Assembly: GCA_000165345.1 (NCBI GenBank) | Contig: CM000429.1 | Coordinates: 192,001 to 256,000, forward strand | Length of the DNA: 64,000 nt | Direction: 5' to 3' | Shown: positions 4,975-63,529 of the stretch, one piece after another | Position numbering within the stretch: the first letter of the stretch is position 1 | Layout: every line of letters starts with the position of its first letter | Position numbers and translations under genes: made by a program | Notes under the pieces: model-generated | The model's input: the letters and a program-made list of their open reading frames with translations, nothing else | Told to the model about the DNA's origin: nothing | Databases searched by the model: none

Positions 4975-4997
4975 AAGTTTGGAAATGGGTGGAATTT

Positions 4998-5066
4998 GCG
5001 TCAAGTGCATGCACGAGACGGCGCGCGGTGGTCTGCATGCATGCCGGTAAAAATGGGTACCGTAGG
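4998..5066. promoter_or_regulatory. GC-rich island in the convergent spacer between the dynein 3' end and the phosphatase 3' end. It holds GCATGC at 5007-5012, a GCATGCATGCCGGTA run at 5035-5050, and GGTACC.
   Basis: Seen directly: gcgtcaagtgcatgcacgagacggcgcgcggtggtctgcatgcatgccggtaaaaatgggtaccg. This is a local GC spike in otherwise AT-rich DNA. Confidence 0.4.
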
Positions 5067-5212
5067 TAATAATAATTGTTGATAAGAGAGAAGAAAGGAA
5101 ATAAGAGGTGGAGAATTGTTGTAAATGTTATTATTTTAAATATAAGAATAAAATACTTACATTTTAATTTTAATCTACTTATGTATTATTTGTATGATTG
5201 ATTGATAATTGA

Positions 5213-17498: not shown

Positions 17499-19472
17499 AT
17501 GAATTATATTATTTTTCTGCATACAGCTTACCTAATACTTGCTAGAATAAGTTTTGGTTTTGGGGAAGAACTTCGTCTCTCAAACTCGAACAATTTCGGA
17601 AAGAATGATATTAACAATGGTAATAATTCACTTTATGTAAGTAATTCAACCAATAATAATTCTTCCAATAATAGATTTACAACAACAACAACAACAACAA
17701 CAACAGTTAGCACATTAATGACAGCAAATACCATTATTAATAAAAGTAATGAAATTGATGTTGGATTTCAAATAACAACTCCTGGTCCAAAATATGTACA
17801 GAATCTGTTAAATGCTGGTGGAGTATCCAATAGTGAGTCATTAGTAAAACAACTGGGGCTTGAAGATCTCTCAGAATTTACAAAAATAGACTCAGTAGTA
17901 TTATTTTATGTACCATGGTGTGTATATTGTCGAGGAATTATGCCTGAATTTGAAAAAGCTGCAAATATATTTAAAGGGAAGAAAATAAGTTTTGGGAAGA
18001 TTGATTGTAATGAGCATCGTAAAGTAGTATTATTGGAACAAGTAATTAGATTTCCAACAATTAAAATATATTCTGAGGGTCAAAGCCAATATTATTCTGG
18101 GCTTCCAAATTCTGTTTCAATTGTCAATTTCGTGAATAGCGAATTCAACAGAGATATTTCAATTTCCAGTTTGAGTGTACTTGAAGTTTTCCTAAATACA
18201 GATAACAGTTCTATCAAAGCAGTAGCAATCGTTGATCATGAAAATAATGATGAAAGTGATTCAATGTCTTTAGTTTCTTCTTCATATTCAAAACTGAGCC
18301 ATAAATATCATAATATTTTCTTTGCACATACTTTAACTAATAATACTGAAGTTTTGAACTTTATCAAAAATTATTCAAAAGATAATAATAAATCAAGAAA
18401 TGTGATAAACCATAGTAATTCAATAAAGGAAAATACTTTAGCAATTTTTACACCTTGGGATGATAATTCAGATAAACAAGATGATTTTAATAAAAATGAT
18501 GGGAATAAACATGGGCTGATTTTGATTGATAAAGTAGATTTTAGTAACTTTGAGAATTTGGAGAAACAAATTTTAAAATACCAATATCCATTAATTACTG
18601 AATTTGATCCTTTAATTGCTCAAAAATTATTTTTGGGTGAAAAAACAATTTCTTTCCTCTTCGTCAACAATGATGTACCAAATTTGAAATTAATAATGGA
18701 GAAATATAGAGAAATAGCAAGGCAATTCAGAGGGGAGATCCTCTTTGTTAAATCAGGAACTAATCTTGCTCATGAGAGAAGAATTGCCCAAGTTTTGATA
18801 CCAGAAGAATGTAAACTTCCTTGTATTTCCATAATAAAGTTTCCAAGTGTTGATGAAGGGAAGATGATCGCTCCAACCTTACCAAATATGCCTCCAATGA
18901 AACGCCCTCAAGCTCCACTAATTTATAGATGTCGGTTTTCTGGGCCAGACTTACTGAAAAATTCAAATCTTGAACACTTTATTCAAGATTTTGTATCAGG
19001 AAGACTGAACCCATATTTTAAAAGTGAAGAACCTCCATCTGAAGAGGATAACGATGGACCAGTTCGTATAGTAGTTTCAAAAACATTCAAAAAAGAAGTA
19101 ATTGAAACAAATTTGGATGTCTTGATAGTTTTTTATGCTCCTTGGTGTGGTCATTGTAGAAAATTGGAACCAGATTATAATGTTCTTGCTCAAAGACTAC
19201 GTGGCATTAGTGATAAGCTTAAGATTGCAAAGATTGATGGATCTCAGAATGAAGTTGAGAATATACAAATTTTGGGTTATCCCTCGATTCTATTATTTAA
19301 ATCAGAAATGAAGACTGAACCAATTTTGTATAATGGCGACAGATCTGTTGCAAACATGATAGAATGGATTTCTAAAAATGCAAGCTTTAAATTTGACCAT
19401 ATGCAGTATTTAAATCCTGAGCTAGCTTTTGAAGATGATGATCTTGATATGGCAATTTCTCATGAATTATGA
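17499..19472 (+). CDS. PDI: Protein disulfide isomerase: signal peptide, two thioredoxin domains (WCVYC and WCGHC), and a C-terminal SHEL ER-retrieval-like tail.
   Basis: The N-terminal hydrophobic signal is MNYIIFLHTAYLILARISFGFG. The active sites are VPWCVYCRG and APWCGHCRK. It ends in ...AISHEL. Confidence 0.88.
   Translation: MNYIIFLHTAYLILARISFGFGEELRLSNSNNFGKNDINNGNNSLYVSNSTNNNSSNNRFTTTTTTTTTVSTLMTANTIINKSNEIDVGFQITTPGPKYVQNLLNAGGVSNSESLVKQLGLEDLSEFTKIDSVVLFYVPWCVYCRGIMPEFEKAANIFKGKKISFGKIDCNEHRKVVLLEQVIRFPTIKIYSEGQSQYYSGLPNSVSIVNFVNSEFNRDISISSLSVLEVFLNTDNSSIKAVAIVDHENNDESDSMSLVSSSYSKLSHKYHNIFFAHTLTNNTEVLNFIKNYSKDNNKSRNVINHSNSIKENTLAIFTPWDDNSDKQDDFNKNDGNKHGLILIDKVDFSNFENLEKQILKYQYPLITEFDPLIAQKLFLGEKTISFLFVNNDVPNLKLIMEKYREIARQFRGEILFVKSGTNLAHERRIAQVLIPEECKLPCISIIKFPSVDEGKMIAPTLPNMPPMKRPQAPLIYRCRFSGPDLLKNSNLEHFIQDFVSGRLNPYFKSEEPPSEEDNDGPVRIVVSKTFKKEVIETNLDVLIVFYAPWCGHCRKLEPDYNVLAQRLRGISDKLKIAKIDGSQNEVENIQILGYPSILLFKSEMKTEPILYNGDRSVANMIEWISKNASFKFDHMQYLNPELAFEDDDLDMAISHEL
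17679..17705 (+). repeat. (ACA)n coding trinucleotide repeat, giving a poly-Thr run inside the PDI N-terminal region.
   Basis: acaacaacaacaacaacaacaaca encodes TTTTTTTT. Confidence 0.8.
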
Positions 19473-35273: not shown

Positions 35274-35977
35274 GCCATTATTTACTTAAGTAGTAGTAAA
35301 CTTTACTTGCTTGATTTCTTTATTTCGCTTTAATCTTTCCTCCATATTCTTGATTTCTATATATTCATATAAACTTAAAGTTTAGACCGTCCCAAAACCT
35401 AAGCTTTAGGGAATCTTCAATCCGAAACAAGTGACCGTTTAGAATTCTAAAACCTTGTGAGCTTGCATTTATCCACCACTGCCGCTACCACCACCACCAC
35501 TTCATCTCTTGACTTCTATGCCTTTTCTAAACTCAAGCCGCCATAATTTCCCGCCCCACTAAAAGTACCATACACGTCATTTCTTTATTAATTGCATGTG
35601 GTTACATGCATCCACATAAAAAAGAAAAGCTTGTAATAATTAAGAGCACAGAAGAACAGTAGGTTAATTAATAAAGGTAACAGATCTTCTTTATCCTATT
35701 CTAAAAGCAAAATGTAATTCAAATAATGAGCGAACAAGTATATATTCAATGCATACAAAGAAAAAATCATAATCTACAAGTAGTATTAAATAATTAGAAT
35801 TAATATAAGTAGATAAATAATAAAAAAGTACAATTTAACTATATAAATATAAAGTTTGAATCCACTCTTGTTTGTACTTTGTCTTTCTAGAGAGAAACTG
35901 AGAGGGGATTCAGGTGTTTGCTTTTAACAGTTTGTCGGAAACTAATCAAGTTTTCATCTTCTCTCTGGATTTACCTT

Positions 35978-41158: not shown

Positions 41159-41232
41159 GCTGTCTTAGCTCAGCACGGTAGAGCGCCAGCCTTTTAAGCT
41201 GGTGGTCATGGGTTCGATCCCCATAGACAGCG
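41159..41232 (+). tRNA. tRNA-Lys (anticodon TTT/UUU), 74 nt. A T5 tract immediately 3' fits a Pol III terminator.
   Basis: I folded it by hand as a cloverleaf: acceptor GCTGTCT/AGACAGC, D-arm GCTC..GAGC, anticodon stem CCAGC/GCTGG with loop CTTTTAA, T-arm ATGGG-TTCGATC-CCCAT, discriminator G, then TTTTT. Confidence 0.85.
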
Positions 41233-42268
41233 TTTTTGTCCAACAGATCGGTGTTTCCCGCCTTGTCTTTTGAAATCATTTTGTTAAATAGCAAATTAAT
41301 ATTAATAAGTTAGAGGTAATACAAATTAATAGTCTCTGTTGACAAACTGGAAAGCCAATTTTATTCAATTTTTTTTTTTTAAATATATTAATTTTCCCCT
41401 CTATAAATTTTTAGCTATTTAAGCTAAGAAAAAAATTTTGTATAAAAAGTTAAGTACATTAGTGTGAATAGTTTTAGGTTTTGGATTTTTTTTAGAACCT
41501 TCATAAAGTCTCTTATAAGGAAAATATCAGCAGGTTCTTGACAAAAAGAGAAAATAAGGACAGAAGTAGATAATTTTTTATTTGGGCAAAAAAGTGATTA
41601 TTGAAATTAGTATTGATGTTATTACATGTACTTTAACTTGCCCCCCTCATAAATAAAGTAGTTTGCAAAATAATTACACACTAAAATTAATAGTAAATTT
41701 GTGCGAGTGCAAATTATGGATTAAGTTCATACTTGCTATAGAAAATAATTTTTTTAAGTAAATAATTCAGTATTTGCTATAATATATTCCCATTTCATGG
41801 GAATTATTAAATATAAATTATTCATATATTTTTAAGTTTGTGAAAAATATTTACGTATATAATTATTTTTACCCTCGCAAGTTTCTCCACCTGCATGGCT
41901 TGTCGGGTTTGATATTTAGGCGGTACAATCCTCTCTGAATAAACGGAAGAAAAATATTCCCCTTTTTGGACTTTTCACATTTTCTGGAATTAGAGAGGAA
42001 AATAAAAATAAAAATAAAAATAAAAAAACAAAAATTAATTCAAAGACGATTGGAAATAGATTTATTAAATATCAACTTATTTGAAGCATTTTTTTCAAGT
42101 ATTTTAGAAACAGTTGGTATTAATTCAAGTATTTGCCAGACATTATATAACTTCAAAACTTGAATATAAAATAATATTCTCTTTTTATTTGATATAAAAT
42201 AAAAAAGACTTAAATTAATAGCAAATATAGATTTTTTTTTTTGAATACAGAAATTAATAATATTCATA

Positions 42269-49925: not shown

Positions 49926-49946
49926 TGCATGCATGCATGCATGCGG
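49926..49946. repeat. Tandem (GCAT)5 / overlapping GCATGC x4, in the convergent spacer between the 48448(+) and 50137(-) genes.
   Basis: cctgcatgcatgcatgcatgcggtac. Confidence 0.8.
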
Positions 49947-50136: not shown

Positions 50137-51594
50137 TCACACTGGAGGGTTAAGCAAACTTCTCCTCCAAGAGACAAAAATATCGGGATAAATGTTGTAG
50201 GTTCGCGCCCAAGCAACATTCTTATTGCTCTCGTAATCTCTTTTTCCTTCCTCATATTCTGTTTCTACTTCGTATTCCGTGGTTATTTCTTCTTCACTTT
50301 CTAAGGTACTTGAGACAGAAGTGTCAATATTAGCACAAATAGTTGTAGTATTGCATGAAGGAGCAGTAGTTGAGGCACTTGTATAGCTAATAGCATAAGA
50401 GTAATAATTTGGGTCTATATTAGCTTGGGAGTGAACTTCAAGCTTGCTTGTAATGCTGCTTCCACTGTTGCTATTGGAGCTGTTACCACTGTTATTGTAA
50501 TCTTTGATTGGCTTAAAAGGCTTAAACCCATCGTTTTTATTAGAGCCAGTTAAGTTCAAATTCTCAAGTTCTAGAGTTTTATTACAAGAATCCAAGCAAA
50601 ATTGTTCCACCCTTTCAGGCTTGAAGAACTTGTCATAAGAATCTAAGCCGTTTATAAGCTCTAAATAATGCCCAAAAAGAAACTGAGTTACTTTTGGTTT
50701 GACGGAAAAATCTATTTTATTTCCATATATGATGTACGAAGGAACTCCTTTAGGGAAAAAAGATTGAATTACTTGAAAAGCTTCCCCTTGTCTCTCCTCA
50801 GCATCACAGAGAGACATAAGTGGGAATTGTTTGGCCTCAAGAGATAAAACAATGTAAGGTTTCATCTTTGTCCAATCTAAAGAAATATGACAAAATGGAC
50901 ACTCAGCCCTACATTTATCCCAAATATCATTTTTTGCTGCCCAATATTCTACATGTAAAGCCTTTCTTAGACAATGGTAGCAACTTACGTGTTTGCATAC
51001 CTTAAATCTGGCCTTTGTACTTCTTGGTTTAAACTGATTACAAGAAAAGCAGAAAAAATGTCTTGGCCTCTTATTACCACTATTACAATTATTATTATTA
51101 TTATTGTTATTAATAGCACTAATATTTCCATTAATACTTTTAGTAAATCCATTTCCAGCTAACTCACACTCTTCTTCTATGTTACTAACAATATTTCCGT
51201 CATAGTGATTCTCTCCAAAGTAAGTGAATTTATTGGAAGTATTAATTGGATTCTGCTCAAATTCAGATTTTTTGTTTTGAATCATACCATAATTGTTATT
51301 GATCCATTCTGGTATTAGTGAATAAACTGTAGCAGTAATATTACCACCAATATTATTGATATGAAGCTCATCAACCTCAAATCTATCTGCAACAGAATCT
51401 TGAGCATTATTGGTATTTATATCGCTTTTTGCAGCTTTATAATTAAATGAATGAACTGAATTATATTGTTTCAAATTATTATTTGTGGTAAAGCTTTGCG
51501 AAAATTGTGTACCCTTTGAGTTATTTAATGCCGAAGATAATCCATTTCTTGGGTACGAAGGATATTTCGGTTTTTTTGGAATATAATAATTCAT
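50137..51594 (-). CDS. N/S-rich protein with a C3HC4 RING-type zinc finger; paralog of the 53793 gene.
   Basis: The RING is CFSCNQFKPRSTKARFKVCKHVSCYHCLRKAL...CRAECPFCHISLDW. It is preceded by a poly-Asn run and followed by low-complexity S/N-rich sequence. Confidence 0.75.
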   Translation of the reverse strand: MNYYIPKKPKYPSYPRNGLSSALNNSKGTQFSQSFTTNNNLKQYNSVHSFNYKAAKSDINTNNAQDSVADRFEVDELHINNIGGNITATVYSLIPEWINNNYGMIQNKKSEFEQNPINTSNKFTYFGENHYDGNIVSNIEEECELAGNGFTKSINGNISAINNNNNNNNCNSGNKRPRHFFCFSCNQFKPRSTKARFKVCKHVSCYHCLRKALHVEYWAAKNDIWDKCRAECPFCHISLDWTKMKPYIVLSLEAKQFPLMSLCDAEERQGEAFQVIQSFFPKGVPSYIIYGNKIDFSVKPKVTQFLFGHYLELINGLDSYDKFFKPERVEQFCLDSCNKTLELENLNLTGSNKNDGFKPFKPIKDYNNSGNSSNSNSGSSITSKLEVHSQANIDPNYYSYAISYTSASTTAPSCNTTTICANIDTSVSSTLESEEEITTEYEVETEYEEGKRDYESNKNVAWARTYNIYPDIFVSWRRSLLNPPV

Positions 51595-53792
51595 TTGACC
51601 TTCTATTTGACCTGAATTCTATAATATATAAATATATATTTACATTTATACCAATGTTAATTTTCATGCAAATAACACATATATAAATGAAATCTTTCCT
51701 TATTTACCTGCTTTAGCTTTATTTTCTGAGTTAAATATTCTTTCTCTTCAAATTACTAGTTTCATTAAAAAATTATTAACCTGCGAAACTTCAATTCAAT
51801 ATATACCTTTCAAAATGATGATTAAAAATCTAATACAATTTCTTCATAACATTAAAAATTTTGTATTAAATCATTTCCAGATAGATTACATTTATTTATT
51901 GATTTTCTTCCAACTTATTAAATCCAATAATAAAAACCTTTGATAGCTAGGAAATATTTATATCCTTCAAGTAATACCTAGTTGATCAATTTAAATTCCT
52001 GGCCTTATTCCAATAAAATCAGCCTTAATAGTCTCTGAAAAATTTAGAGGTTTTTAAGAGTTAACTAGCATTCAGTTATTATTGATAATATTCTTTTTAT
52101 TGTTAAATTAATAGGAAAGCCTTTTTTGTAATGGTTAAAAGATCTACCACACAGATATCCTATACACCGCCAAGTTTCATGTTTTTTTAATCTTGTCTTA
52201 TCTTTAGATAGATAACTGATTTTATTTACTTCATGCTTTCAGATTTGGCGCCCAAATCTTTATTATTTGTAATTATCCTCGGGATTTCCCCACATTAAGT
52301 ATCTTAATGATCTTGGCAGATGTTTTACCAGCTTAAATTAATTTCTTAAAAGTATAAATATTAAAGTAGCTTTAAACTTCATTTCATACGAGAAGCAAAA
52401 TATGACCAGCTGAATGCTCAATCTTAATAATATTTTTCTTTCTGAATAACTTACTTAGAGTATTTATTTTTTTTATATTTCTTTTTAAAAAAAACATGGA
52501 GGAAGGTTTTGTTTCTGATTTATCAATTGAAATACTATGTTGAAAATAATTTTATAATAATTAGAAAAAAATTTATAATTTATCCACATGAAAACGTTGA
52601 AATTTTTTCATCGCATGTAAAATTTTGTCCTCACTTGCAATGCCGGTATAGAATATTGCGTGCACACAAATTTTTAAATAAAATGAATAATAGACACGTG
52701 TACTAATAATAAATATCAATAAATTTATTGTAAATGTTAATTTTTATTAATAAAGTTTAGAATTCTTATTTATTTTTTTTTTAATAATATTTTATTGATG
52801 TAATGTGAATAATTGAAAACTATTATTTTTTTTCCGATAAAAAAATCCTGGTTTATTATAGAGAATATTATGATATATAATTTTCAATTATAAAATATAA
52901 AAAAGGATTGAATCAAATTTTTATTAATATTGTATTATTGCTCATTTTAGACGTGTTATTTCGATGAAATAAAATGGGGGATAGGCGTGGCAAGGCTCAA
53001 GAAAATGACTAGATAATAAGCATTAAATCTAATTTTATTAGAAATACTTTGTTTTTAAATACAACTTTAAATTAAATTCTTACCAAAACTCAAAAATTAT
53101 AGAACATTATTACTTCAATCTCAATTATTGTCATAAAATTAAAAAAAAAAAAAAAGAAAAAATAATAAATTGTCAGATTGCATGCAACTTCATTTTAATG
53201 TGGATAAATGCACACGCACTGCATGCATTTTGCAGATAATATTTTCGATAGCTAAGAATTAGATGAAATAAAAACAATTAAATAGATTTAAGAAATTAAA
53301 ATTTGATTAAAAAAATTAAAATTAACCATGGATAAAATATTTTTTTTAATTAATTTAACAAGTAATATACTTTTTTCAGAGGCTGTATAAGGTATATTTT
53401 TTGCATTAATTATGTACTTGTCTTCATACACACACGCTTTGTCTTCAGTTATTGACTGAAGATGCCCTTAATTGAGCATACTGCATTATCTGGTTATGAT
53501 GTTCGTTATACAGTAATTAGAGGTCGAAACAATAATTGTGAAAATAGAGGAATATACAAGATATCTAAAAGTAAAGATCGGAATTAAAGCATTGCAAAAG
53601 TATTAGATCAACGGTGAATGTGAATGGAGCTTTGAAAAATAAAAAGGAAGTAATTCAGCTCAATTTAAGTGATAAAAACGCGTCCTGTTGGGGTTAGTCA
53701 AAGTGATAACAATAGTAAAATATTTTGAAACATTCTAATAAAGAAAAAAAGGTTGAATACATTTTTTTAAATCTAAAAAATATTATAATAGA

Positions 53793-56294
<2,502 letters not shown>

Positions 56295-56812
56295 TAAATG
56301 ATATAAAAGATAATATAATTACTTTATTATTACAAAAGATTCAAAGGTAATGAAAATAATGTCATTAAATAAAGCATATTTATAGGATTAGTAATAGTTG
56401 TACTATGGTAAAGTAATCATATTATAATTTATTATTTTATGAGTAAATAAAGCATATGATGATTTTGGTAAGTGAGTGTGTATAATATCATAGAAGAATA
56501 TTTTGAAGAAAATCAGTTTTATTGTAAAAGATATAAATGAATATTGTCATTATTATTAATATAATAAAAACAAATAATTATATTATTACCAAATAACCAT
56601 ACAAATGAACTTATTTCTTTCCTATTTAACATTAATTTATTTATTTATTCAAAAACAAAAGGAAAAGAAAAAATAAATAATAAACAAATTTATTTAATAA
56701 ATTCCCTTATAATATACCTTTTCTCTATTTGGCAAGAAAAAAAGTGAGTTGAAATAATTATATTTTAATAATTTAAAGTTTGAAAGCAATCCCATATTCA
56801 AATATACGTGGT

Positions 56813-56900
56813 GCCGGTATATAAAAATTGACTAGGATGACATTTTTATTTGGCGCATGTTAGTGCATGCACTTACACATGCACTGTTTTGGCGGGAAAT
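56813..56900. promoter_or_regulatory. Promoter-like cluster: TGCCGGTATATAAAAATT (a CCGGTAT element plus a TATA-like box), GCATGCAC x2 and an E2F-like TTTTGGCGGGAAAT. It lies in the convergent spacer between the RING gene 3' end and the ABCE1 3' end.
   Basis: ggtgccggtatataaaaattgactaggatgacatttttatttggcgcatgttagtgcatgcacttacacatgcactgttttggcgggaaatctgggacgg. Confidence 0.45.
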
Positions 56901-57452
56901 CTGGGACGGTAAGTGATTTGTTTATAGAAAATAAAATTATTAGAGTTATAGTCAAGAGGAAGTGATAGTGAATAAGTAGATGTAAATTTAAGAGAGAGAG
57001 AGAGAGAACGAGTGGATTCAGAGTAAATGAAGGTAAATTTTTCAAGAATTGATCAGAAAAAAAAAGAAACAAGTAAGAGTAAATCAATGGAAAATGAGGG
57101 GTGGTATGAAAGAACTAAGGTAGTGATAGAGAAGAGGTATGTTTAAGGAATTTATACAATAAATAGGCGAATAGGGAAAATGTTCGTGTATTCAAGGCGG
57201 CAAAGCCACACTTGTTTAGAATTGATTCTCTTAGACTTTTTGAGTTTATGTGAATAATTTTACTTCTGTATGACCTAAAATGATTATATTATTGTTTAAC
57301 AATATATAAAAAAAGTTTGTAAAAAAAAAGAATGACGTATTAAAATTATATAATTATTATAAAGGAAGCGAAAGAATCAAGTTAAGAATGTTTCTTGGCT
57401 TGTTTGTATTAAGGATTTGTGAGGTTTTTTCTTTTTTTTTTTCTCTTGATAT

Positions 57453-59309
57453 TTATTCCTCAAGGAGGAAATAATTTCCGGACATTTTTTGTTCTTTATC
57501 TTTGACAGAATCAAGTTTGTTAATTCTAGGTCTAAAGTTCATAGGATCTCTTCTGAAAGAGATTTCAAGGATTTTAAGGAATTTATTCATGCCAGTAACT
57601 AAATTCTCAGGTCTATGAGCAAAGCAATCAACACCAGGAGTACCGGTAAATAATATAACACGGTCAGCAAGATATGTAGCCATAATAAAGTCATGCTCAA
57701 CAACGAATGCAGTTTTTTGTGAGTGGAGAATAAATCTTTTAATGATTTTAGAGGCTGTAATTCTTTGCTCAGAGTCCAAGTAGGCCGATGGCTCATCAAT
57801 AAGATATATATCTGCTTTCTTACCAAGGGCAAGGATTAAAGCAACTCTTTGAAGCTCACCACCAGAAAGGAGCTTTACTTGTTGGTCAGAAATTCTCTCA
57901 ATATTGAATGGTTTTACAACTTCTGAGGTGAATTGAACATCCATAAATGAGTCTCTAATCTTCATCAAGAATAAATCTCGAACACTACCTTCAAATTTTG
58001 GTGATATAGTTTGTGGTTTGTATGATACATTAAATTCTGGCATTTGGTAATGATCTTTGTCAATTACATCAGAGTCATCAGGCTTGCTTACTCCTGCTAA
58101 AATCTTAATAAAGGTAGTTTTACCACATCCATTTTGTCCAAGCATAACAATAATCTCAGAATTTCCAAAATCTCCAGCTTCAGCTGAAAGCTTGAAAGAT
58201 CCCATTGTTTTTGTGAATCCTGGATACTTTACAAAATTAGATCTTTGCATCGCAATTTCATCTTGATCTACAATCTTGAAATTCAGTCCTTCTTCTCTAA
58301 ATCTCATATTTTCAGTAGGAACGAAACCATCCAGAAATATATTAATACCTTCTCTAACACTAAAAGGAGTAGTTACCACTCCATATACTCCAGGACTTCC
58401 CCATAAACAACAAACTAGATCTGATAAATAGTCTAATACTGAGAGATCATGCTCAACTACTATTACATAGTTTTCATGATTAAGTACATTTCTAATAACT
58501 TTAGCAGCATTAATTCTCTGCTTAATATCCAAATAGCTACTTGGCTCATCGTACATGTAAACCATACTAGCAACTGAAGTACTTACACATAAAGCAAATC
58601 TCTGTAGTTCTCCACCGCTTAATTCACCAACTTGTCTATCTAGTAAATGTCTTAGTTCAAGCTGATCTATTAGGGTTTCTGCAATAGACTTCTCATCTTT
58701 GGCATTAATAATATCACCAACTCTACCTTTAACTCTTTTTGGAATATGATCAACATATTGTGGTTTAATTACCGTCTTAAGCTCTCCATTCTGCATCTTG
58801 TTAAAGTATGTTTGCAATTCACTTCCTCTAAAATAAGCTATTACTTCTTTCCATTCTAACTCCTTTGTGTAATCTCCAAGATTTGGACGAAGCTTTCCAC
58901 TCAATATTTGCAAAGCTGTACTCTTTCCTATACCATTGGTACCAACTAATCCTAAAACTTGCCCTGGACGCGGTACAGGTAATCTATGTAATTTAAAGCT
59001 ATTCTTACCGTATCTATGTGTTGTGTCTTTACTCATATTCTTTGGCAAATTAATAATTGTAATTGCAGAATATGGACATTTCTTAACACAAATACCACAC
59101 CCAATACAGAGAGGTTCTGAAATGGAGGCAATTTTACTTGAAGAATCCACCTCTACACAAAGCTTTCCTGTTCTTACCACTGGACAGAACGATTTACATT
59201 CTTGTCGACAATTCTTAGGCTTACATCTATCCGCTTCCACAATAGCTATTCTCAAACGACTTTCATTTTCGTCCCCTCCGCCACTCTTTGTACTCTTTTT
59301 TGGTGGCAT
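57453..59309 (-). CDS. ABCE1: ABCE1 / RNase L inhibitor: N-terminal 4Fe-4S ferredoxin-like domain plus two ABC ATPase domains.
   Basis: The N-terminal Fe-S cysteine clusters are [16 protein letters not shown] and [12 protein letters not shown]. There are two Walker A sites ([18 protein letters not shown]), the ABC signature LSGGELQR twice, and Walker B DEPSSYLD / DEPSAYLD. Confidence 0.92.
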
Positions 59310-60085: not shown

Positions 60086-63000
60086 TTAGGATGTAAAAAG
60101 AGTAAGCATTTTGTTTGTGACGTAGAATCCACCAAAAGTATTGATAGAGGCCAAAAATGTAGAGAACATGGACATTAAGGTAGTATATGTTACAGTTTGG
60201 TTCCCATATTGCATCATACTACCAATGATGATTACTCCAGAAAGAGCATTAGTTACTGACATTAAAGGTGTATGTAGTTTAGGATCCACATCCCATACAC
60301 AGTAATATCCCAACATGGTTGAAATGATAAAGGAAAAGATATTTTGGATCTGAATTGTAGTCATTGTGAGTCCTAATACTGTGAAGAAAAGAGTAGCAAG
60401 TATTACTCCAGCATAAAAGTTTACTCCTCCATTCAATTGCTTATCAAAGTTTTTAAATTCTTTCATGACTTTTTGTAAATACCCATCGATTTCAGTTTTT
60501 GAGCAAAAAACAGAAGTTTTACTTGTGGTTGTATCTTCATCCTTGATAGAAATGAGAGTTGACTGCTTTGAAATATTTTCAAGAAGACTCTTCTTTTCTA
60601 ACATTTCTTGGTTTTCGTGCTTCTCTTGATTTTGTTCAGTAAAAGGTCTCCAAAGCATCTTATTTTCATGAGCAACACACATTTTTGAAATGATTTCATT
60701 GTTCAAATCACATTTAAACCTATCAGATGTTGGCCCTAATTCACTAATTAAAGATAATAAGTTTCCAGAAAACAATTCACTGCTTTGTAATGGCATTGAA
60801 AATACATAGTTACATTTTCCAATAATTGTTGTTCCTGATTGAACATCAGAGAATGTTCTGTCTTTCTGGGTTAATTCACAGTTACCTCCAAATTCTGAGC
60901 AAAGATCTACAATAACTGATCCACTCTTCATCTTTCTTACAGCTTCTTTTGTAATCAAAATTGGGCATTCCTCACCAGGTTTACATGCTGATGTGATTAC
61001 AATATCTGAGATACACAAATACTTTTCAATTAAATCCCTCTGCTTTTTCAATATTTCCTCTTTTCTGAGAGATTCTCCCTCACTTGGGACTTGGATAAAC
61101 CTTGCTCCACAGCTTTCTGCTTCTTCCTTTGAAGTAGATCGTGAATCCATTGCAAACACTTTTGTTCCCATACTTTTTGCTGTAGCAATGGCCTGTAGAC
61201 CAGCAACACCTGCTCCTATGACTAATACTGTTGACTCTTCAACATTACCCGCTGCACTGGAAATTGATTTACTAATTCTTGGAAGATAATTAAAAGCATC
61301 AACTACTGCTCTATATCCAGAAATTGTGCTTGTTGTAGTTCTAATATCCATAGTTTGAGCACGAGAAGTTCTTGGAACTTCATCCAAAGCTATCACAGTT
61401 ACTCCATTCTTTGTTAAGCTTGCTAGTAGTTGATCTTGGCTGTTCTCCTTATCTTGGTACTGACTTATATGCATGTTACAAATTAAAAACTGTCCTTGTT
61501 TCATGCACTTTGCTTCCTTCTCACTTGGTCTAGCCATCTTGATCACTACATCACATTCCTTGATTAACTCCTCAATATTTTTATATACAAGAGCTCCACT
61601 TCTCATATATATCTCCTCTGAGAAATATTTGGACTGGAATGATGAAGTTAAAACATCTCTGGAAATTGCTACTTCATATCCCTTTTCTCTAAACTTATAC
61701 ACTTTAGAAGGAGGTATCGGGAATAATAAAGTTTTATCTTGTTCTGAAACTATTGGTAAAAGAGCAATTTTTTTTGAACCTTTGTTAGCACTCATAGATA
61801 CTTTCTCTGTCTCTGTTTCTGCTCCACCGGCTTTCTTGCTCCTAGAACTAACATTTCCTGAAGTCTTGGATGATTTTCTTTGCTTTGAAGAAAGTAAAGC
61901 TGTCGTAACCTCATCAGTATCTTCAACTTCTTCTATCTCTTCTGTTACCCTTGAATCTATATATTGCCTTGGAACAAATCCTGCACATCCTTTTAATATC
62001 TTATATACTTGTTGAAGAGTTTCTCTTGAATCACCAAGTAACATTCTGGTTCTTTCACATGTAAAGAGTTCATTTTCAATGCATGCATATCCATATGCTA
62101 AGGATCTTTTTGAAACTACGACTTGTTTTGCTTTCCAAACATTTATTACTGGCATTCCTGAAATCTTACTTTGAGGGTCCAAAGCTGCAGGATTAACTAT
62201 ATCATTAGCTCCTACCACTAATACCAAATCATACTCGTGCATGCAATTGTTCACAGCATCCATCTCTTTAACAATTCTGCTTGGTACTCCTGATTCAGCA
62301 AGTAAAACATTCATATGGCCTGGCATTCTTCCAGCCACTGGATGAATTCCAATTTCTACTATTGTACTTCTAGACTCTAATTCTTTAATTATATCAGAAA
62401 TTATATCTTGACATTTACTTACTGCCATACCATATCCTGGTACTATAAGTATCTTTGACGATTCAGCTAATATCTCAGCAGTTTCTTTTGAACTTGTAGT
62501 ATAACATTTTGTATCTCCTACCATCTTTTCTGTCTCTTCCTGATCAAATCCTCCAAGAAGAACTGAAACAAAGTCTCTATTCATTCCTTTACACATTATA
62601 TATGAAAGTATTGCACCACTTGAACCAATTAAAGCTCCACTTATAATTAAGAGACTATTGTCCAAAAGAAATCCTGTAATAGCCGTAGACCAACCACTGT
62701 AGCTATTTAACATACTTATTATTACTGGCATGTCAGCTCCTCCAATACTTATAATCATAAATATCCCAAATAAAGCTGAAAGAATCATTCCACAATGTAA
62801 GTTGGTTGTTATTACTAACTCGTTATTGGATACACAAAATGATAATCCTGTCATACATATTGAAAAAAGTAAAATTGAAAGTGATACATTCTTTAATGGT
62901 ATCTTTACACTCTTACTTGGAATAATATCATCCAACTTCAATGCTGCAATGACCGAACCAACAAAAGTTATCATACCCATAACACCTCCTACAAATAATT

Positions 63001-63529
63001 CCATTCTTCTTAAGACATAGATTCCTTCCTTCATCCCAATAGAAGAATAGAAATAAGAATATGATACAAATAATGCTGCCAATCCAACAAGACTGTGAAA
63101 TATCGCAACCAATTGTGGCATTTTTATTAATTGAGTTTTATCTGCAATATAAACACCAACAGCTCCTGATACTATTGTTGCCAAAAAGAATACAAAGTAG
63201 TGATTTCCAAAACCTTCTTCTGATAACGATACCAATATTGCTACCATCATTCCTACAAACCCTACTATATTACTTCTATATGCAGTCTTTTCAGATGATA
63301 ACCCTTTAATGCAATAAATAAAGCATAAAGCTGCAAAAAATTGGCCTGCCATTGTCAAAGACCCTGAATTACTTGTTTGATAAATCTCTGAGAGTCCCAA
63401 AAACAAGCTTTTACCACCTTCCTCCATTAACTTTCCTTGTAGTCTTGCATCCACACCATTAAGTGCAAAAATCACTAATAATACCACTGAAAATACTAAT
63501 AATCCTAATTTCATACTTAATTTCCTCAT
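60086..63529 (-). CDS. Single-polypeptide proton-translocating NAD(P) transhydrogenase. The domain order is dIIb(TM)-dIII(NADP)-linker-dI(NAD)-dIIa(TM), with an N-terminal signal/targeting peptide.
   Basis: The beta-type part comes first: GGADMPVIISMLNSYSGW, PGYGMAVSKCQ, AGRMPGHMNVLLAE and VVGANDIVNPAA. Then comes an S/K-rich linker. The alpha-type dI follows, with VIGAGVAGLQAIATAKSMGTKVFAMDSR. The C-terminus has TM helices. Confidence 0.9.
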   Translation of the reverse strand: MRKLSMKLGLLVFSVVLLVIFALNGVDARLQGKLMEEGGKSLFLGLSEIYQTSNSGSLTMAGQFFAALCFIYCIKGLSSEKTAYRSNIVGFVGMMVAILVSLSEEGFGNHYFVFFLATIVSGAVGVYIADKTQLIKMPQLVAIFHSLVGLAALFVSYSYFYSSIGMKEGIYVLRRMELFVGGVMGMITFVGSVIAALKLDDIIPSKSVKIPLKNVSLSILLFSICMTGLSFCVSNNELVITTNLHCGMILSALFGIFMIISIGGADMPVIISMLNSYSGWSTAITGFLLDNSLLIISGALIGSSGAILSYIMCKGMNRDFVSVLLGGFDQEETEKMVGDTKCYTTSSKETAEILAESSKILIVPGYGMAVSKCQDIISDIIKELESRSTIVEIGIHPVAGRMPGHMNVLLAESGVPSRIVKEMDAVNNCMHEYDLVLVVGANDIVNPAALDPQSKISGMPVINVWKAKQVVVSKRSLAYGYACIENELFTCERTRMLLGDSRETLQQVYKILKGCAGFVPRQYIDSRVTEEIEEVEDTDEVTTALLSSKQRKSSKTSGNVSSRSKKAGGAETETEKVSMSANKGSKKIALLPIVSEQDKTLLFPIPPSKVYKFREKGYEVAISRDVLTSSFQSKYFSEEIYMRSGALVYKNIEELIKECDVVIKMARPSEKEAKCMKQGQFLICNMHISQYQDKENSQDQLLASLTKNGVTVIALDEVPRTSRAQTMDIRTTTSTISGYRAVVDAFNYLPRISKSISSAAGNVEESTVLVIGAGVAGLQAIATAKSMGTKVFAMDSRSTSKEEAESCGARFIQVPSEGESLRKEEILKKQRDLIEKYLCISDIVITSACKPGEECPILITKEAVRKMKSGSVIVDLCSEFGGNCELTQKDRTFSDVQSGTTIIGKCNYVFSMPLQSSELFSGNLLSLISELGPTSDRFKCDLNNEIISKMCVAHENKMLWRPFTEQNQEKHENQEMLEKKSLLENISKQSTLISIKDEDTTTSKTSVFCSKTEIDGYLQKVMKEFKNFDKQLNGGVNFYAGVILATLFFTVLGLTMTTIQIQNIFSFIISTMLGYYCVWDVDPKLHTPLMSVTNALSGVIIIGSMMQYGNQTVTYTTLMSMFSTFLASINTFGGFYVTNKMLTLFTS

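Follow-up and report, generated by a model that had tools for sequence, protein, structure and literature searches.

The middle of the convergent spacer between a RING-like gene and ABCE1 on Cryptosporidium parvum chromosome 1 is probably a self-contained RNA polymerase II promoter, of the kind standard in C. parvum, that drives non-coding transcription. Its module most likely starts the catalogued antisense lncRNAs that lie over both flanking genes, rather than a hidden protein gene. An initial annotation of the spacer had proposed an unannotated small gene or ncRNA; as a whole, its observation was partly confirmed and its interpretation is partly supported, a possibly spliced ncRNA being the likeliest product of the module.

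All coordinates refer to the window, the whole 64-kb stretch of DNA that was analysed. The spacer spans exactly 1158 bp (56295-57452) between two tail-to-tail genes, as initially described: the 833-aa ORF of the RING-like gene (53793..56294, + strand) and ABCE1 (57453..59309, - strand; CPATCC_000323). ABCE1 is an essential ribosome-recycling factor. The RING-like gene was identified as CPATCC_000324 by elimination, from the locus tags of PNT (CPATCC_000322), ABCE1 and a 485-aa gene (CPATCC_000325). The E2F/AP2 module lies ~520-620 nt from the RING-like stop and ~540-640 nt from the ABCE1 stop, in a genome with a mean intergenic distance of 504 bp (PMC7840661). Neither neighbouring mRNA accounts for it, in agreement with the initial annotation. 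Among the convergent spacers of the window, those without motifs are mostly 148-252 bp long, with one of 1140 bp. E2F or GCATGC motifs are present in four of the seven, including the spacer between CPATCC_0003250 and CPATCC_0003260, two genes that also have antisense lncRNAs.

The promoter-like character first ascribed to the module looks genuine, given its conservation and its exact published C. parvum motifs. Specifically, TTTGGCGGGAAA fits a published E2F-like upstream motif exactly, as TGCATGCAC fits ApiAP2_1 and (AG)8.5 a GAGA-like motif (consensus sequences TTTGGCGGGAAV, which is Motif 4, and DTTGSCGCCH for E2F, and BGCATGCAH for ApiAP2_1; Oberstaller et al. 2013, PMC3734150). A conserved block, CGTGGTGCCGGTATATAAAAATTGAC (56807..56832, + strand), contains the TATA-like box TATATAAAAA (56818-56827); the first motif of the initial annotation is present here as CCGGTATATAAAA at 56814-56826, although its start had been placed one base off. 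It is followed by a cluster of ApiAP2_1-type boxes (56853..56884). Two boxes had been described, but there is a single exact GCATGCAC (56865-56872), within the TGCATGCAC (56864-72) that fits the BGCATGCAH consensus exactly, and the supposed second box reads ACATGCAC (56877-56884). GCGCATG (56853-56859) is a third box of the cluster. The E2F/DP site TTTGGCGGGAAA (56888..56899) matches Motif 4 exactly, and the perfect E2F-like motif reported earlier, TTTTGGCGGGAAAT, was recovered letter for letter at 56887-56900. The dinucleotide tract, initially given as (GA)11 at ~56993-57015, is really (AG)8.5, or (GA)8, at 56991-57007 (TRF), and is the exact match to the GAGA-like Motif 5.

These motifs are strongly enriched in the window relative to chance. 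The GGCGGGAA core of the E2F site was found 10 times, compared with 0.2 expected from shuffles, and GCATGC 38 times, compared with 5 expected; only three copies of the exact TTTGGCGGGAAV occur, the TTTGGCGGGAAA site among them. Nine of the ten GGCGGGAA sites are intergenic, with the majority in spacers adjoining the 5' end of some gene. Upstream of C. parvum lncRNAs, the two highest-ranking motifs are likewise E2F/DP1 and ApiAP2_1 (PMC7840661). Open-chromatin peaks of sporozoites are dominated by the E2F motif, and more than half of these peaks were called bidirectional promoters (bioRxiv 2025.01.17.633476).

Cross-species comparison points to constraint on the same elements. Six species bear the module (C. 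parvum, C. hominis, C. meleagridis, chipmunk genotype I, C. ubiquitum and C. canis), and the five-species set referred to below comprises these without C. canis; a Logan contig from an extra Cryptosporidium lineage (L022), which ends 34 nt after ABCE1, was left out. The GGCGGGAA core shows no change in all six species, C. canis included, and each keeps at least one GCATGC/CATGC pair. Across the five-species set, GGTAAGTGA, GTATGTTT and TTATATAAT are also unchanged, and the sequence between them has diverged: identity in the flanking spacer drops to 59-68% with many gaps, and the surrounding spacer is barely alignable. This pattern indicates purifying selection on the sites in the module. The TATA core is retained, although C. 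hominis reads TATATAGAAA and C. ubiquitum TATAAGAAA, and such differences in the TATA-like box among species count against a promoter. The GA tract is not kept in C. meleagridis or chipmunk genotype I. With respect to the initial concern that the motif cluster might be lineage-specific and unconserved, it is conserved in six species but absent from C. felis (where the spacer is 189 bp), C. bovis, C. muris and C. andersoni.

Two further conserved blocks lie outside the module. The first, TATTACCAAAT (ATTTGGTAATA on the - strand; 56584..56594), is identical in the five species; on a leftward transcript it might serve as a weak GTAATA donor or a U1 site, or it could belong to the 3' UTR of the RING-like gene. 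The second (block E, 57333..57354) combines TGACGT (57333-38) with the invariant, palindromic and TATA-like TTATATAAT (57346-54), ~100 nt beyond the ABCE1 stop, and may be part of the ABCE1 3' UTR, a poly(A) element of that gene or a second core promoter. Just left of TTATATAAT, an extra E2F-like G(G/A)GCGGG is found in chipmunk genotype I, C. ubiquitum and C. canis; it is missing from C. parvum, C. hominis and C. meleagridis.

Conserved donor-like sites accompany the module (splice boundaries are marked here with a slash). The element GGTAAGTGA (56908..56916, + strand; invariant in five species) carries a canonical donor, G/GTAAGT, that places an intron start at 56909. This GTAAGT (56909-56914), the most informative feature of the module, is 9 nt 3' of the E2F motif, was missed by the initial annotation, and is one of only 32 such hexamers in the window, both strands counted. 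GGTAAGTGA corresponds to the Cryptosporidium splice-donor consensus, with 84% of Cryptosporidium introns starting with GTAAGT (PMC2483917). Both of the donors that had been proposed initially are present, atgaag/gtaaat at 57027-57038 and agaagag/gtatgt at 57130-57142, but only the GTATGT of the latter is conserved; its hexamer (57137-57142) belongs to a second donor-like element, GTATGTTT (AG/GTATGT; 57137..57144, + strand), invariant in the five species. The alignment revealed no conservation of the atgaag/gtaaat site, the ATGs or the short ORFs.

Acceptor-like sites follow at 57213..57236 (+ strand): TTTAG/A, with its AG at 57218-19, and TCTTAG/AC, with its AG at 57233-34. The former (57215-19) is not universal, because C. 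hominis has TTTAA, and the TAG/A of the latter (57232-35) is invariant in five species. Putative introns would therefore be 83-98 nt long if the second donor were used and 311-326 nt long if the first were, and a conserved AG at 56944-45 would yield an intron of just 37 nt; Cryptosporidium introns have a median of 61 nt and a mean of 82 nt (PMC2483917). Between the donors lies a purine-rich, indel-rich and fast-evolving stretch (56917..57136, + strand), in which invariant columns are sparser than anywhere else in the spacer and GC skew reaches +0.69. It contains the (AG)8.5 tract and may be an intron or an exon under little constraint.

The transcripts that such a promoter might drive have candidates in the literature, which makes the initial description of the unit as unannotated doubtful. 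Li et al. (2021; PMC7840661) catalogued Cp_lnc_383 (CPATCC_0003233), antisense to CPATCC_0003230 (ABCE1), and Cp_lnc_384 (CPATCC_0003243), antisense to CPATCC_0003240 (the RING-like gene). The level of Cp_lnc_383 climbs to 7.84 at 48 h, and that of Cp_lnc_384 is ~9 in oocysts (PMC7840661). In the same catalogue, 190 of 396 lncRNAs have a significant motif within 100 bp upstream, a feature that is hence not strictly defining, and E2F and AP2_1 occur together upstream of 17 lncRNAs. Neither Cp_lnc_383 nor Cp_lnc_384 appears in the S3 upstream-motif sheet, and therefore either their assembled 5' ends are not close to the module or the short reads define those ends imprecisely. Starts of antisense lncRNAs typically track the 3' end of the sense CDS (PMC7840661). 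The upstream- and downstream-gene columns of the catalogue give no directional support, because strands disagree for Cp_lnc_384 and Cp_lnc_386. Cp_lnc_384-type antisense expression has been reported even in the distant C. baileyi, an observation that was counted against the promoter reading, as the module is absent from several other species. Exact-protein look-ups in Logan with ABCE1 and a 39-aa ORF of the spacer matched only genomic contigs of ~20 kb.

Under the promoter reading, TTTGGCGGGAAA would be bound by an E2F/DP dimer and the TGCATGCA-like boxes beside the TATA-like element by a cgd2_3490-type ApiAP2 factor. Transcription could then proceed from the module in one or both directions, out across the 3' ends of the convergent genes. 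The products would be Cp_lnc_383, running rightward on the + strand of the window over ABCE1, and/or Cp_lnc_384, running leftward on the - strand over the RING-like gene. A rightward RNA would encounter the consensus GTAAGT donor within ~60 nt of the TATA-predicted start and would therefore probably be spliced to an acceptor near 57219 or 57234, which would skip the fast-evolving purine-rich stretch. A bolder version, which we consider quite unlikely, is that the spacer holds a conserved, spliced non-coding unit whose only selected parts are the E2F/AP2 promoter and the consensus U1-binding donors just downstream. The RNA sequence itself would then be of no importance; the effect would come from transcribing and recruiting U1 across the ABCE1 and RING-like 3' ends, by way of interference or promoter directionality. 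If true, this would be the first donor-enforced productive non-coding transcription in an apicomplexan.

Several alternatives compete with a non-coding promoter. The initial suggestion of a small protein gene with short exons and introns draws on the conserved donor-like sites, on ATG-initiated ORFs of 32 and 39 aa downstream of the module, and on a 62-aa, one-intron gene model placed in the spacer by the C. hominis 30976 annotation (L023 5481-5712). However, no reading frame is conserved at the orthologous loci: tblastn with all stop-to-stop segments gave only weak matches, to the same DNA in several frames and on both strands, with stops in the orthologues. The exon-1 ORF is interrupted in C. 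ubiquitum, and a search of 5.8 billion clustered proteins yielded no homologue of the 39-aa ORF, the only relative of this ORF and of a hypothetical junction-spanning 47-aa version being the unspliced C. parvum genomic ORF itself. As for the C. hominis model, a 1-nt indel at codon 3 destroys its frame in C. parvum, and chipmunk genotype I does not keep its GTGAGT donor. Protein accessions on the two sides of the spacer are consecutive in three C. parvum annotations and in that of chipmunk genotype I. A protein gene is thus highly improbable, and the 32-aa and 39-aa ORFs, the spliced 42- and 47-aa versions and the 62-aa model were all rejected for want of a conserved frame or homologue. We give similarly little credence to a small structured ncRNA gene resembling an snRNA, snoRNA or telomerase RNA. 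On the - strand, 56790-56925 does present CACUUACCG, a GUGCAUG...CAUGCAC hairpin, AAUUUUUAUA and an AUAUAC...GUAUAU stem, in which an ACUUACC resembling the U1 5' end precedes a hairpin, a U-rich stretch and a terminal stem. The apparent hairpin nevertheless arises because the GCATGC motif is palindromic and repeated. Folding z-scores are not significant (-1.16 on the - strand and -0.91 on the + strand), none of the 15 pairs predicted by RNAalifold is compensatory, and the covariation term is positive. Rfam returned nothing at E <= 10 across the 3 kb from 55500 to 58500 and nothing in the spacer at the gathering threshold in a search of the whole window. The sole match of that search was a tRNA-Lys elsewhere. 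A U1-like snRNA on the - strand was rejected on these grounds, the single C. parvum U1 having been recovered by Rfam elsewhere in the genome (PMC9465071). Sequence reading likewise led to the rejection of a telomerase RNA, with a lone CCTAAAA near 57270 and no 1.5-repeat template, and of a snoRNA in either 57137-57219 or the purine-rich stretch, neither of which has C/D boxes.

Two further alternatives remain. The spacer may contain no separate transcription unit, the conserved blocks being 3'-UTR, polyadenylation or termination elements of the convergent mRNAs, or the E2F/AP2 cluster a distal regulatory or boundary element without its own RNA. The position of block E close to the ABCE1 stop would fit this, as would blocks near 56311-56352 just after the RING-like stop and the lack of a flagged motif within 100 bp upstream of either lncRNA; Cp_lnc_383 is moreover co-directional with the RING-like gene (r = 0.78) and could be read-through. 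Against this, Cp_lnc_384 is anticorrelated with ABCE1 (r = -0.83) and is therefore unlikely to be ABCE1 read-through, and the distances from module to stop codons seem long for 3' UTRs when set beside the mean intergenic distance. The intergenic location of nine of the ten GGCGGGAA sites, mostly in spacers touching a gene's 5' end, is a further argument against it, and a conserved donor 9 nt from the E2F site serves no opposite-strand 3' UTR. We regard the absence of a separate unit as unlikely. There is a slimmer chance that the spacer encodes an independent, spliced intergenic lncRNA, one that is confined to it, is neither Cp_lnc_383 nor Cp_lnc_384 and was missed or filtered by the catalogues. 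The conserved donors and acceptor-like sites do lie entirely inside the spacer, and Li et al. report only 33 lincRNAs and 5 spliced lncRNAs, expecting more with deeper data (PMC7840661). However, no spacer-derived lincRNA is present among the part of their FASTA sequences that is listed, and a poly(A) site before ABCE1 lacks independent support.

[quoted passage not shown] If correct, it ties two uncharacterised C. parvum antisense lncRNAs to a defined, conserved promoter of ~110 bp, which offers a precise target for testing antisense regulation of ABCE1 or its RING-like neighbour. For annotators, it implies that long convergent spacers with E2F or GCATGC motifs mark ncRNA promoters and not missed protein genes.

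The closest counterparts are other C. parvum antisense lncRNA promoters (PMC7840661, PMC3734150), with which the module shares the same two motif types as exact consensus matches, a position beyond the 3' ends of the sense genes, catalogued lncRNAs over both neighbours and a non-coding character. It differs in its mid-spacer position, >500 bp away from both stop codons and not where a CDS ends, in having candidate products outside the 190 lncRNAs with a nearby upstream motif, and in being followed by a conserved splice donor when just 5 of the 396 lncRNAs were reported as spliced. Bidirectional promoters are also described in compact protist genomes, for example that of Giardia lamblia (Teodorovic et al. 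2007, as cited in PMC7840661). These resemble the module in their palindromic or orientation-independent motifs, the candidate transcripts on either side and the E2F hallmark of open chromatin (bioRxiv 2025.01.17.633476), but the spacer module would have the 3' end of a gene on each side, not a 5' end. The opposite stage profiles, with Cp_lnc_384 high in oocysts and Cp_lnc_383 at 48 h, argue against simple co-regulation.

Animal loci of the GAS5/UHG type conserve their promoter and splice sites and not their exons, and in the U1-PAS axis, U1 sites are enriched downstream of productive promoters. To our knowledge, the U1-PAS mechanism has never been shown in Apicomplexa, and unlike GAS5/UHG, the putative introns here yielded no snoRNA or other cargo and their splicing is predicted from sequence. 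The likeness to both systems lies in the pattern of conservation, which is concentrated in the promoter motifs and in GTAAGT and GTATGT donors facing away from them, with fast-evolving sequence in between.

The 1158-bp spacer between the convergent RING-like gene and ABCE1 (56295-57452) carries a motif cluster, or module, that is most likely a promoter of the E2F/AP2 type driving antisense lncRNA transcription, an arrangement of a known kind in convergent spacers. The module includes CCGGTATATAAAA (56814-56826), GCGCATG (56853-59), a single exact GCATGCAC (56865-72), ACATGCAC (56877-84) and TTTTGGCGGGAAAT (56887-56900), and an (AG)8.5 tract follows at 56991-57007. The initial annotation had described this cluster with small errors, listing two boxes where there is one exact GCATGCAC plus ACATGCAC and GCGCATG, and calling the purine tract (GA)11; its two short segments running from ATG to GT are present where it placed them. 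Within the window, GGCGGGAA occurs 10 times against 0.2 expected from dinucleotide shuffles, with 9 of these sites intergenic, and GCATGC is found 38 times where 5 are expected, so the spacer motifs are not a product of chance. Three spacer elements are also exact matches to published over-represented C. parvum upstream motifs (Oberstaller et al. 2013, PMC3734150): TTTGGCGGGAAA to Motif 4 (TTTGGCGGGAAV), which has just three exact copies in the 64-kb window, TGCATGCAC to Motif 1 (BGCATGCAH), and (GA)8 to the GAGA-like Motif 5.

The ABCE1 locus was compared in C. hominis, C. meleagridis, chipmunk genotype I, C. ubiquitum, C. canis, C. felis, C. bovis, C. andersoni and C. muris. The spacer 3' of ABCE1 is long in most of these species (744-1581 bp) and just 189 bp in C. 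felis, where tblastn confirms that the RING-like orthologue truly ends. Identity to the C. parvum spacer declines from C. hominis (96%) through C. meleagridis (87%) and chipmunk genotype I (68%) to C. ubiquitum (59%), and the alignment has numerous gaps. Across these five alignable species, C. parvum included, five runs are invariant: TATTACCAAAT (56584-94), GGCGGGAA (56891-98), GGTAAGTGA (56908-16), GTATGTTT (57137-44) and TTATATAAT (57346-54). C. canis, with only 81% DNA identity in its ABCE1 CDS, retains GGCATGCATTTGTGCATGCC followed by TTGGGCGGGAAAT, and the module was undetected at the C. felis, C. bovis, C. muris and C. andersoni loci. The motifs are thus not lineage-specific and unconserved within the C. 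parvum-to-C. canis clade, as the initial annotation had allowed they might be; the module is conserved across this clade and not genus-wide.

Some turnover is visible around these elements. An extra E2F-like G(G/A)GCGGG (orthologous to ~57295-57325) is found in chipmunk genotype I, C. ubiquitum and C. canis and is missing in C. parvum, C. hominis and C. meleagridis; it lies beside block E, the pair formed by TGACGT (57333-38) and the palindromic TATA-like TTATATAAT. Near 56850, the TTTGGCGCATG of C. parvum corresponds to a second TTTGGCGGGCGCGC in C. meleagridis. The collapsed C. felis spacer (L010 7855-8044) is GC-rich, with a GA-repeat and no E2F or GCATGC motif, and the C. felis ABCE1 CDS is compositionally divergent (71% DNA identity to C. 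parvum versus 81% for C. canis).

ABCE1 (RNase L inhibitor; 57453..59309, minus strand) has a product identical to C. parvum EAZ51327.1 / QOY43529.1 (CPATCC_000323), and is followed by the NAD(P) transhydrogenase (60086..63529, minus strand; CPATCC_000322), the chromosome-1 transhydrogenase known in the literature as cgd1_990. With the 485-aa 'RING finger containing protein' (50137..51594, minus strand) placed as CPATCC_000325, the low-complexity 833-aa RING-like ORF that ends at the spacer (53793..56294, plus strand) is CPATCC_000324 by elimination. Protein accessions run consecutively over the gap in three C. parvum annotations (QOY43528/29/[30]/31, WKS75998/97/[96]/95 and KAL5370338/37/[36]/35) and in chipmunk genotype I (KAH8584902/03), and none of the four contains a protein gene in the spacer. 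The ATCC tag numbers of chromosome 1 run opposite to the window orientation. The RING-like gene contains a Ser/Asn-coding trinucleotide repeat (55344-55431), its protein differs in length among C. parvum assemblies (833 versus 831 aa), and roughly twenty Logan genomic assemblies have contig breaks inside it. The protein collection lacks the exact 833-aa product, though the gene is called on L001.

The small protein gene proposed in the initial annotation was not borne out. When all stop-to-stop segments of the spacer were searched by tblastn against the orthologous spacers, only weak matches were obtained; these fall in several frames and on either strand of the same conserved sequence, and stops interrupt the orthologues. 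Neither the 39-aa ORF (57027-57146) nor a hypothetical spliced 47-aa form has a relative among 5.8 billion clustered proteins, except the C. parvum genomic ORF itself. Exact matches to ABCE1 and the 39-aa ORF in Logan assemblies were all on genomic contigs. A 62-aa one-intron model is placed in the spacer by the C. hominis 30976 annotation (MKLISFLYNINLF...; L023 5481-5712, equivalent to ~56604-56834, plus strand). This AT-rich, low-complexity model is probably spurious: in C. parvum its frame is disrupted by a 1-nt indel, and its donor is unconserved in chipmunk genotype I. A structured RNA was likewise rejected, as the spacer has no Rfam match even at E <= 10, the module has folding z-scores of -1.16 and -0.91, and RNAalifold found no compensatory pair; the conspicuous hairpin amounts to no more than a palindromic motif present twice. 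The minus strand can be read as U1-like (ACUUACC), but this reading was abandoned, since Rfam identifies the only C. parvum U1 at another place in the genome (PMC9465071).

The proposal of an ncRNA promoter fares better, since the motifs match published upstream motifs and are conserved; the RNA is probably not unannotated, as antisense lncRNAs are already listed for both neighbours. Among motifs found upstream of C. parvum lncRNAs, E2F/DP1 and ApiAP2_1 rank highest; ~92% of these lncRNAs are antisense, with start sites tracking the sense CDS 3' end (PMC7840661). In sporozoites, E2F is also the dominant motif of ATAC-seq peaks, more than half of which were called bidirectional promoters (bioRxiv 2025.01.17.633476). 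Cp_lnc_383 (CPATCC_0003233) is antisense to ABCE1 (CPATCC_0003230), and so on the plus strand, with VST values of 5.3 in oocysts, 6.3 at 24 h and 7.8 at 48 h (PMC7840661). Cp_lnc_384 (CPATCC_0003243), antisense to the RING-like gene (CPATCC_0003240) and so on the minus strand, falls from 8.5-9.0 in oocysts/sporozoites to 6.4 at 48 h and is anticorrelated with ABCE1 (r = -0.83; PMC7840661). It is one of 167 lncRNAs detected also in C. hominis and C. baileyi. Under typical antisense geometry, both 5' ends would fall inside the spacer. Both lncRNAs are missing from the published set that has a motif <=100 bp upstream (PMC7840661), and Cp_lnc_383 could instead be read-through of the RING-like gene, with which it is co-directional and correlated (r = 0.78; PMC7840661). 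In the same paper, the text equates cgd1_380 with CPATCC_0039020, yet CPATCC_000xxxx tags belong to chromosome 1, and the 'upstream_gene/downstream_gene' columns misfit the strands of Cp_lnc_384 and Cp_lnc_386.

If the module is such a promoter, transcription could proceed in either direction. On the plus strand, the TATA-like box (56818-27) would direct a start near 56850 and an exon 1 of ~60 nt ending at a GTAAGT donor; after an acceptor near 57219 or 57234, the RNA would run across block E into ABCE1 as antisense. GTAAGT starts 84% of Cryptosporidium introns, which have a median length of 61 nt and a mean of 82 nt (PMC2483917). Here, it lies 9 nt after the E2F motif and is unlikely to be accidental, because it is invariant in five species and the whole window has only 32 such sites on both strands. 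A GTATGT 228 nt beyond it, equally invariant, also seems unlikely to be accidental. The purine-rich and indel-rich sequence between them (56917-57136) has the sparsest invariant columns of the spacer, as would be expected for an intron or unconstrained exon; conserved consensus donors flanking such apparently fast-evolving sequence are one modestly interesting feature. Two acceptor-like sites follow on the plus strand: TTTAG/A (AG at 57218-19), which is TTTAA in C. hominis, and TCTTAG/AC (AG at 57233-34), whose TAGA is invariant in five species. Leftward initiation appears at least as plausible as rightward, since the minus strand presents E2F, AP2 boxes and TATA in textbook order, with E2F oriented (TTCCCGCC along transcription) as it is in the upstream regions of ABCE1, the gene for U2 snRNP A' and the gene that begins at 17499. 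Block E, ~100 nt beyond the ABCE1 stop, could belong to the ABCE1 3' UTR or act as a second core promoter. A second plus-strand copy of GGTAAGTGA, a 9-mer with the consensus GTAAGT donor, lies at 56467-56475, 173 nt past the RING-like stop. C. meleagridis retains this copy (GGTAAGTGT) and chipmunk genotype I has part of it (GGTAAGA); it might mark a 3'-UTR intron or U1 site.

Motif-bearing convergent spacers are routine within the window: four of seven contain E2F or GCATGC motifs, and the motif-free three measure 148, 252 and 1140 bp. For example, TTCCCGCC occurs at 35548-35555 in a 704-bp convergent spacer (35274-35977), and another of 238 bp (4975-5212) has GCGC-type sites along with three GCATGC (5007-5044). 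The same E2F core is found at 41255-41262 in a 2.3-kb divergent spacer, 23 nt downstream of tRNA-Lys(UUU) (41159-41232), the window's sole Rfam or ARAGORN match. The 2.2-kb divergent spacer between both RING-type genes (51595-53792; GC 19-25%), unusually long for C. parvum, contains two TGCATGCA boxes (53179-53228) and may harbour a further ncRNA or introns of a 5' UTR. A parallel case is the 243-bp convergent spacer between CPATCC_0003260 (48448..49893, plus strand) and CPATCC_0003250 (50137..51594, minus strand), where a (GCAT)n array (49926-49945) provides four overlapping GCATGC / TGCATGCAT ApiAP2_1 motifs. Antisense lncRNAs are catalogued for both genes (Cp_lnc_386 and Cp_lnc_385, respectively; PMC7840661), so that this spacer, like that between ABCE1 and the RING-like gene, combines ApiAP2_1 motifs with antisense lncRNAs on both sides.
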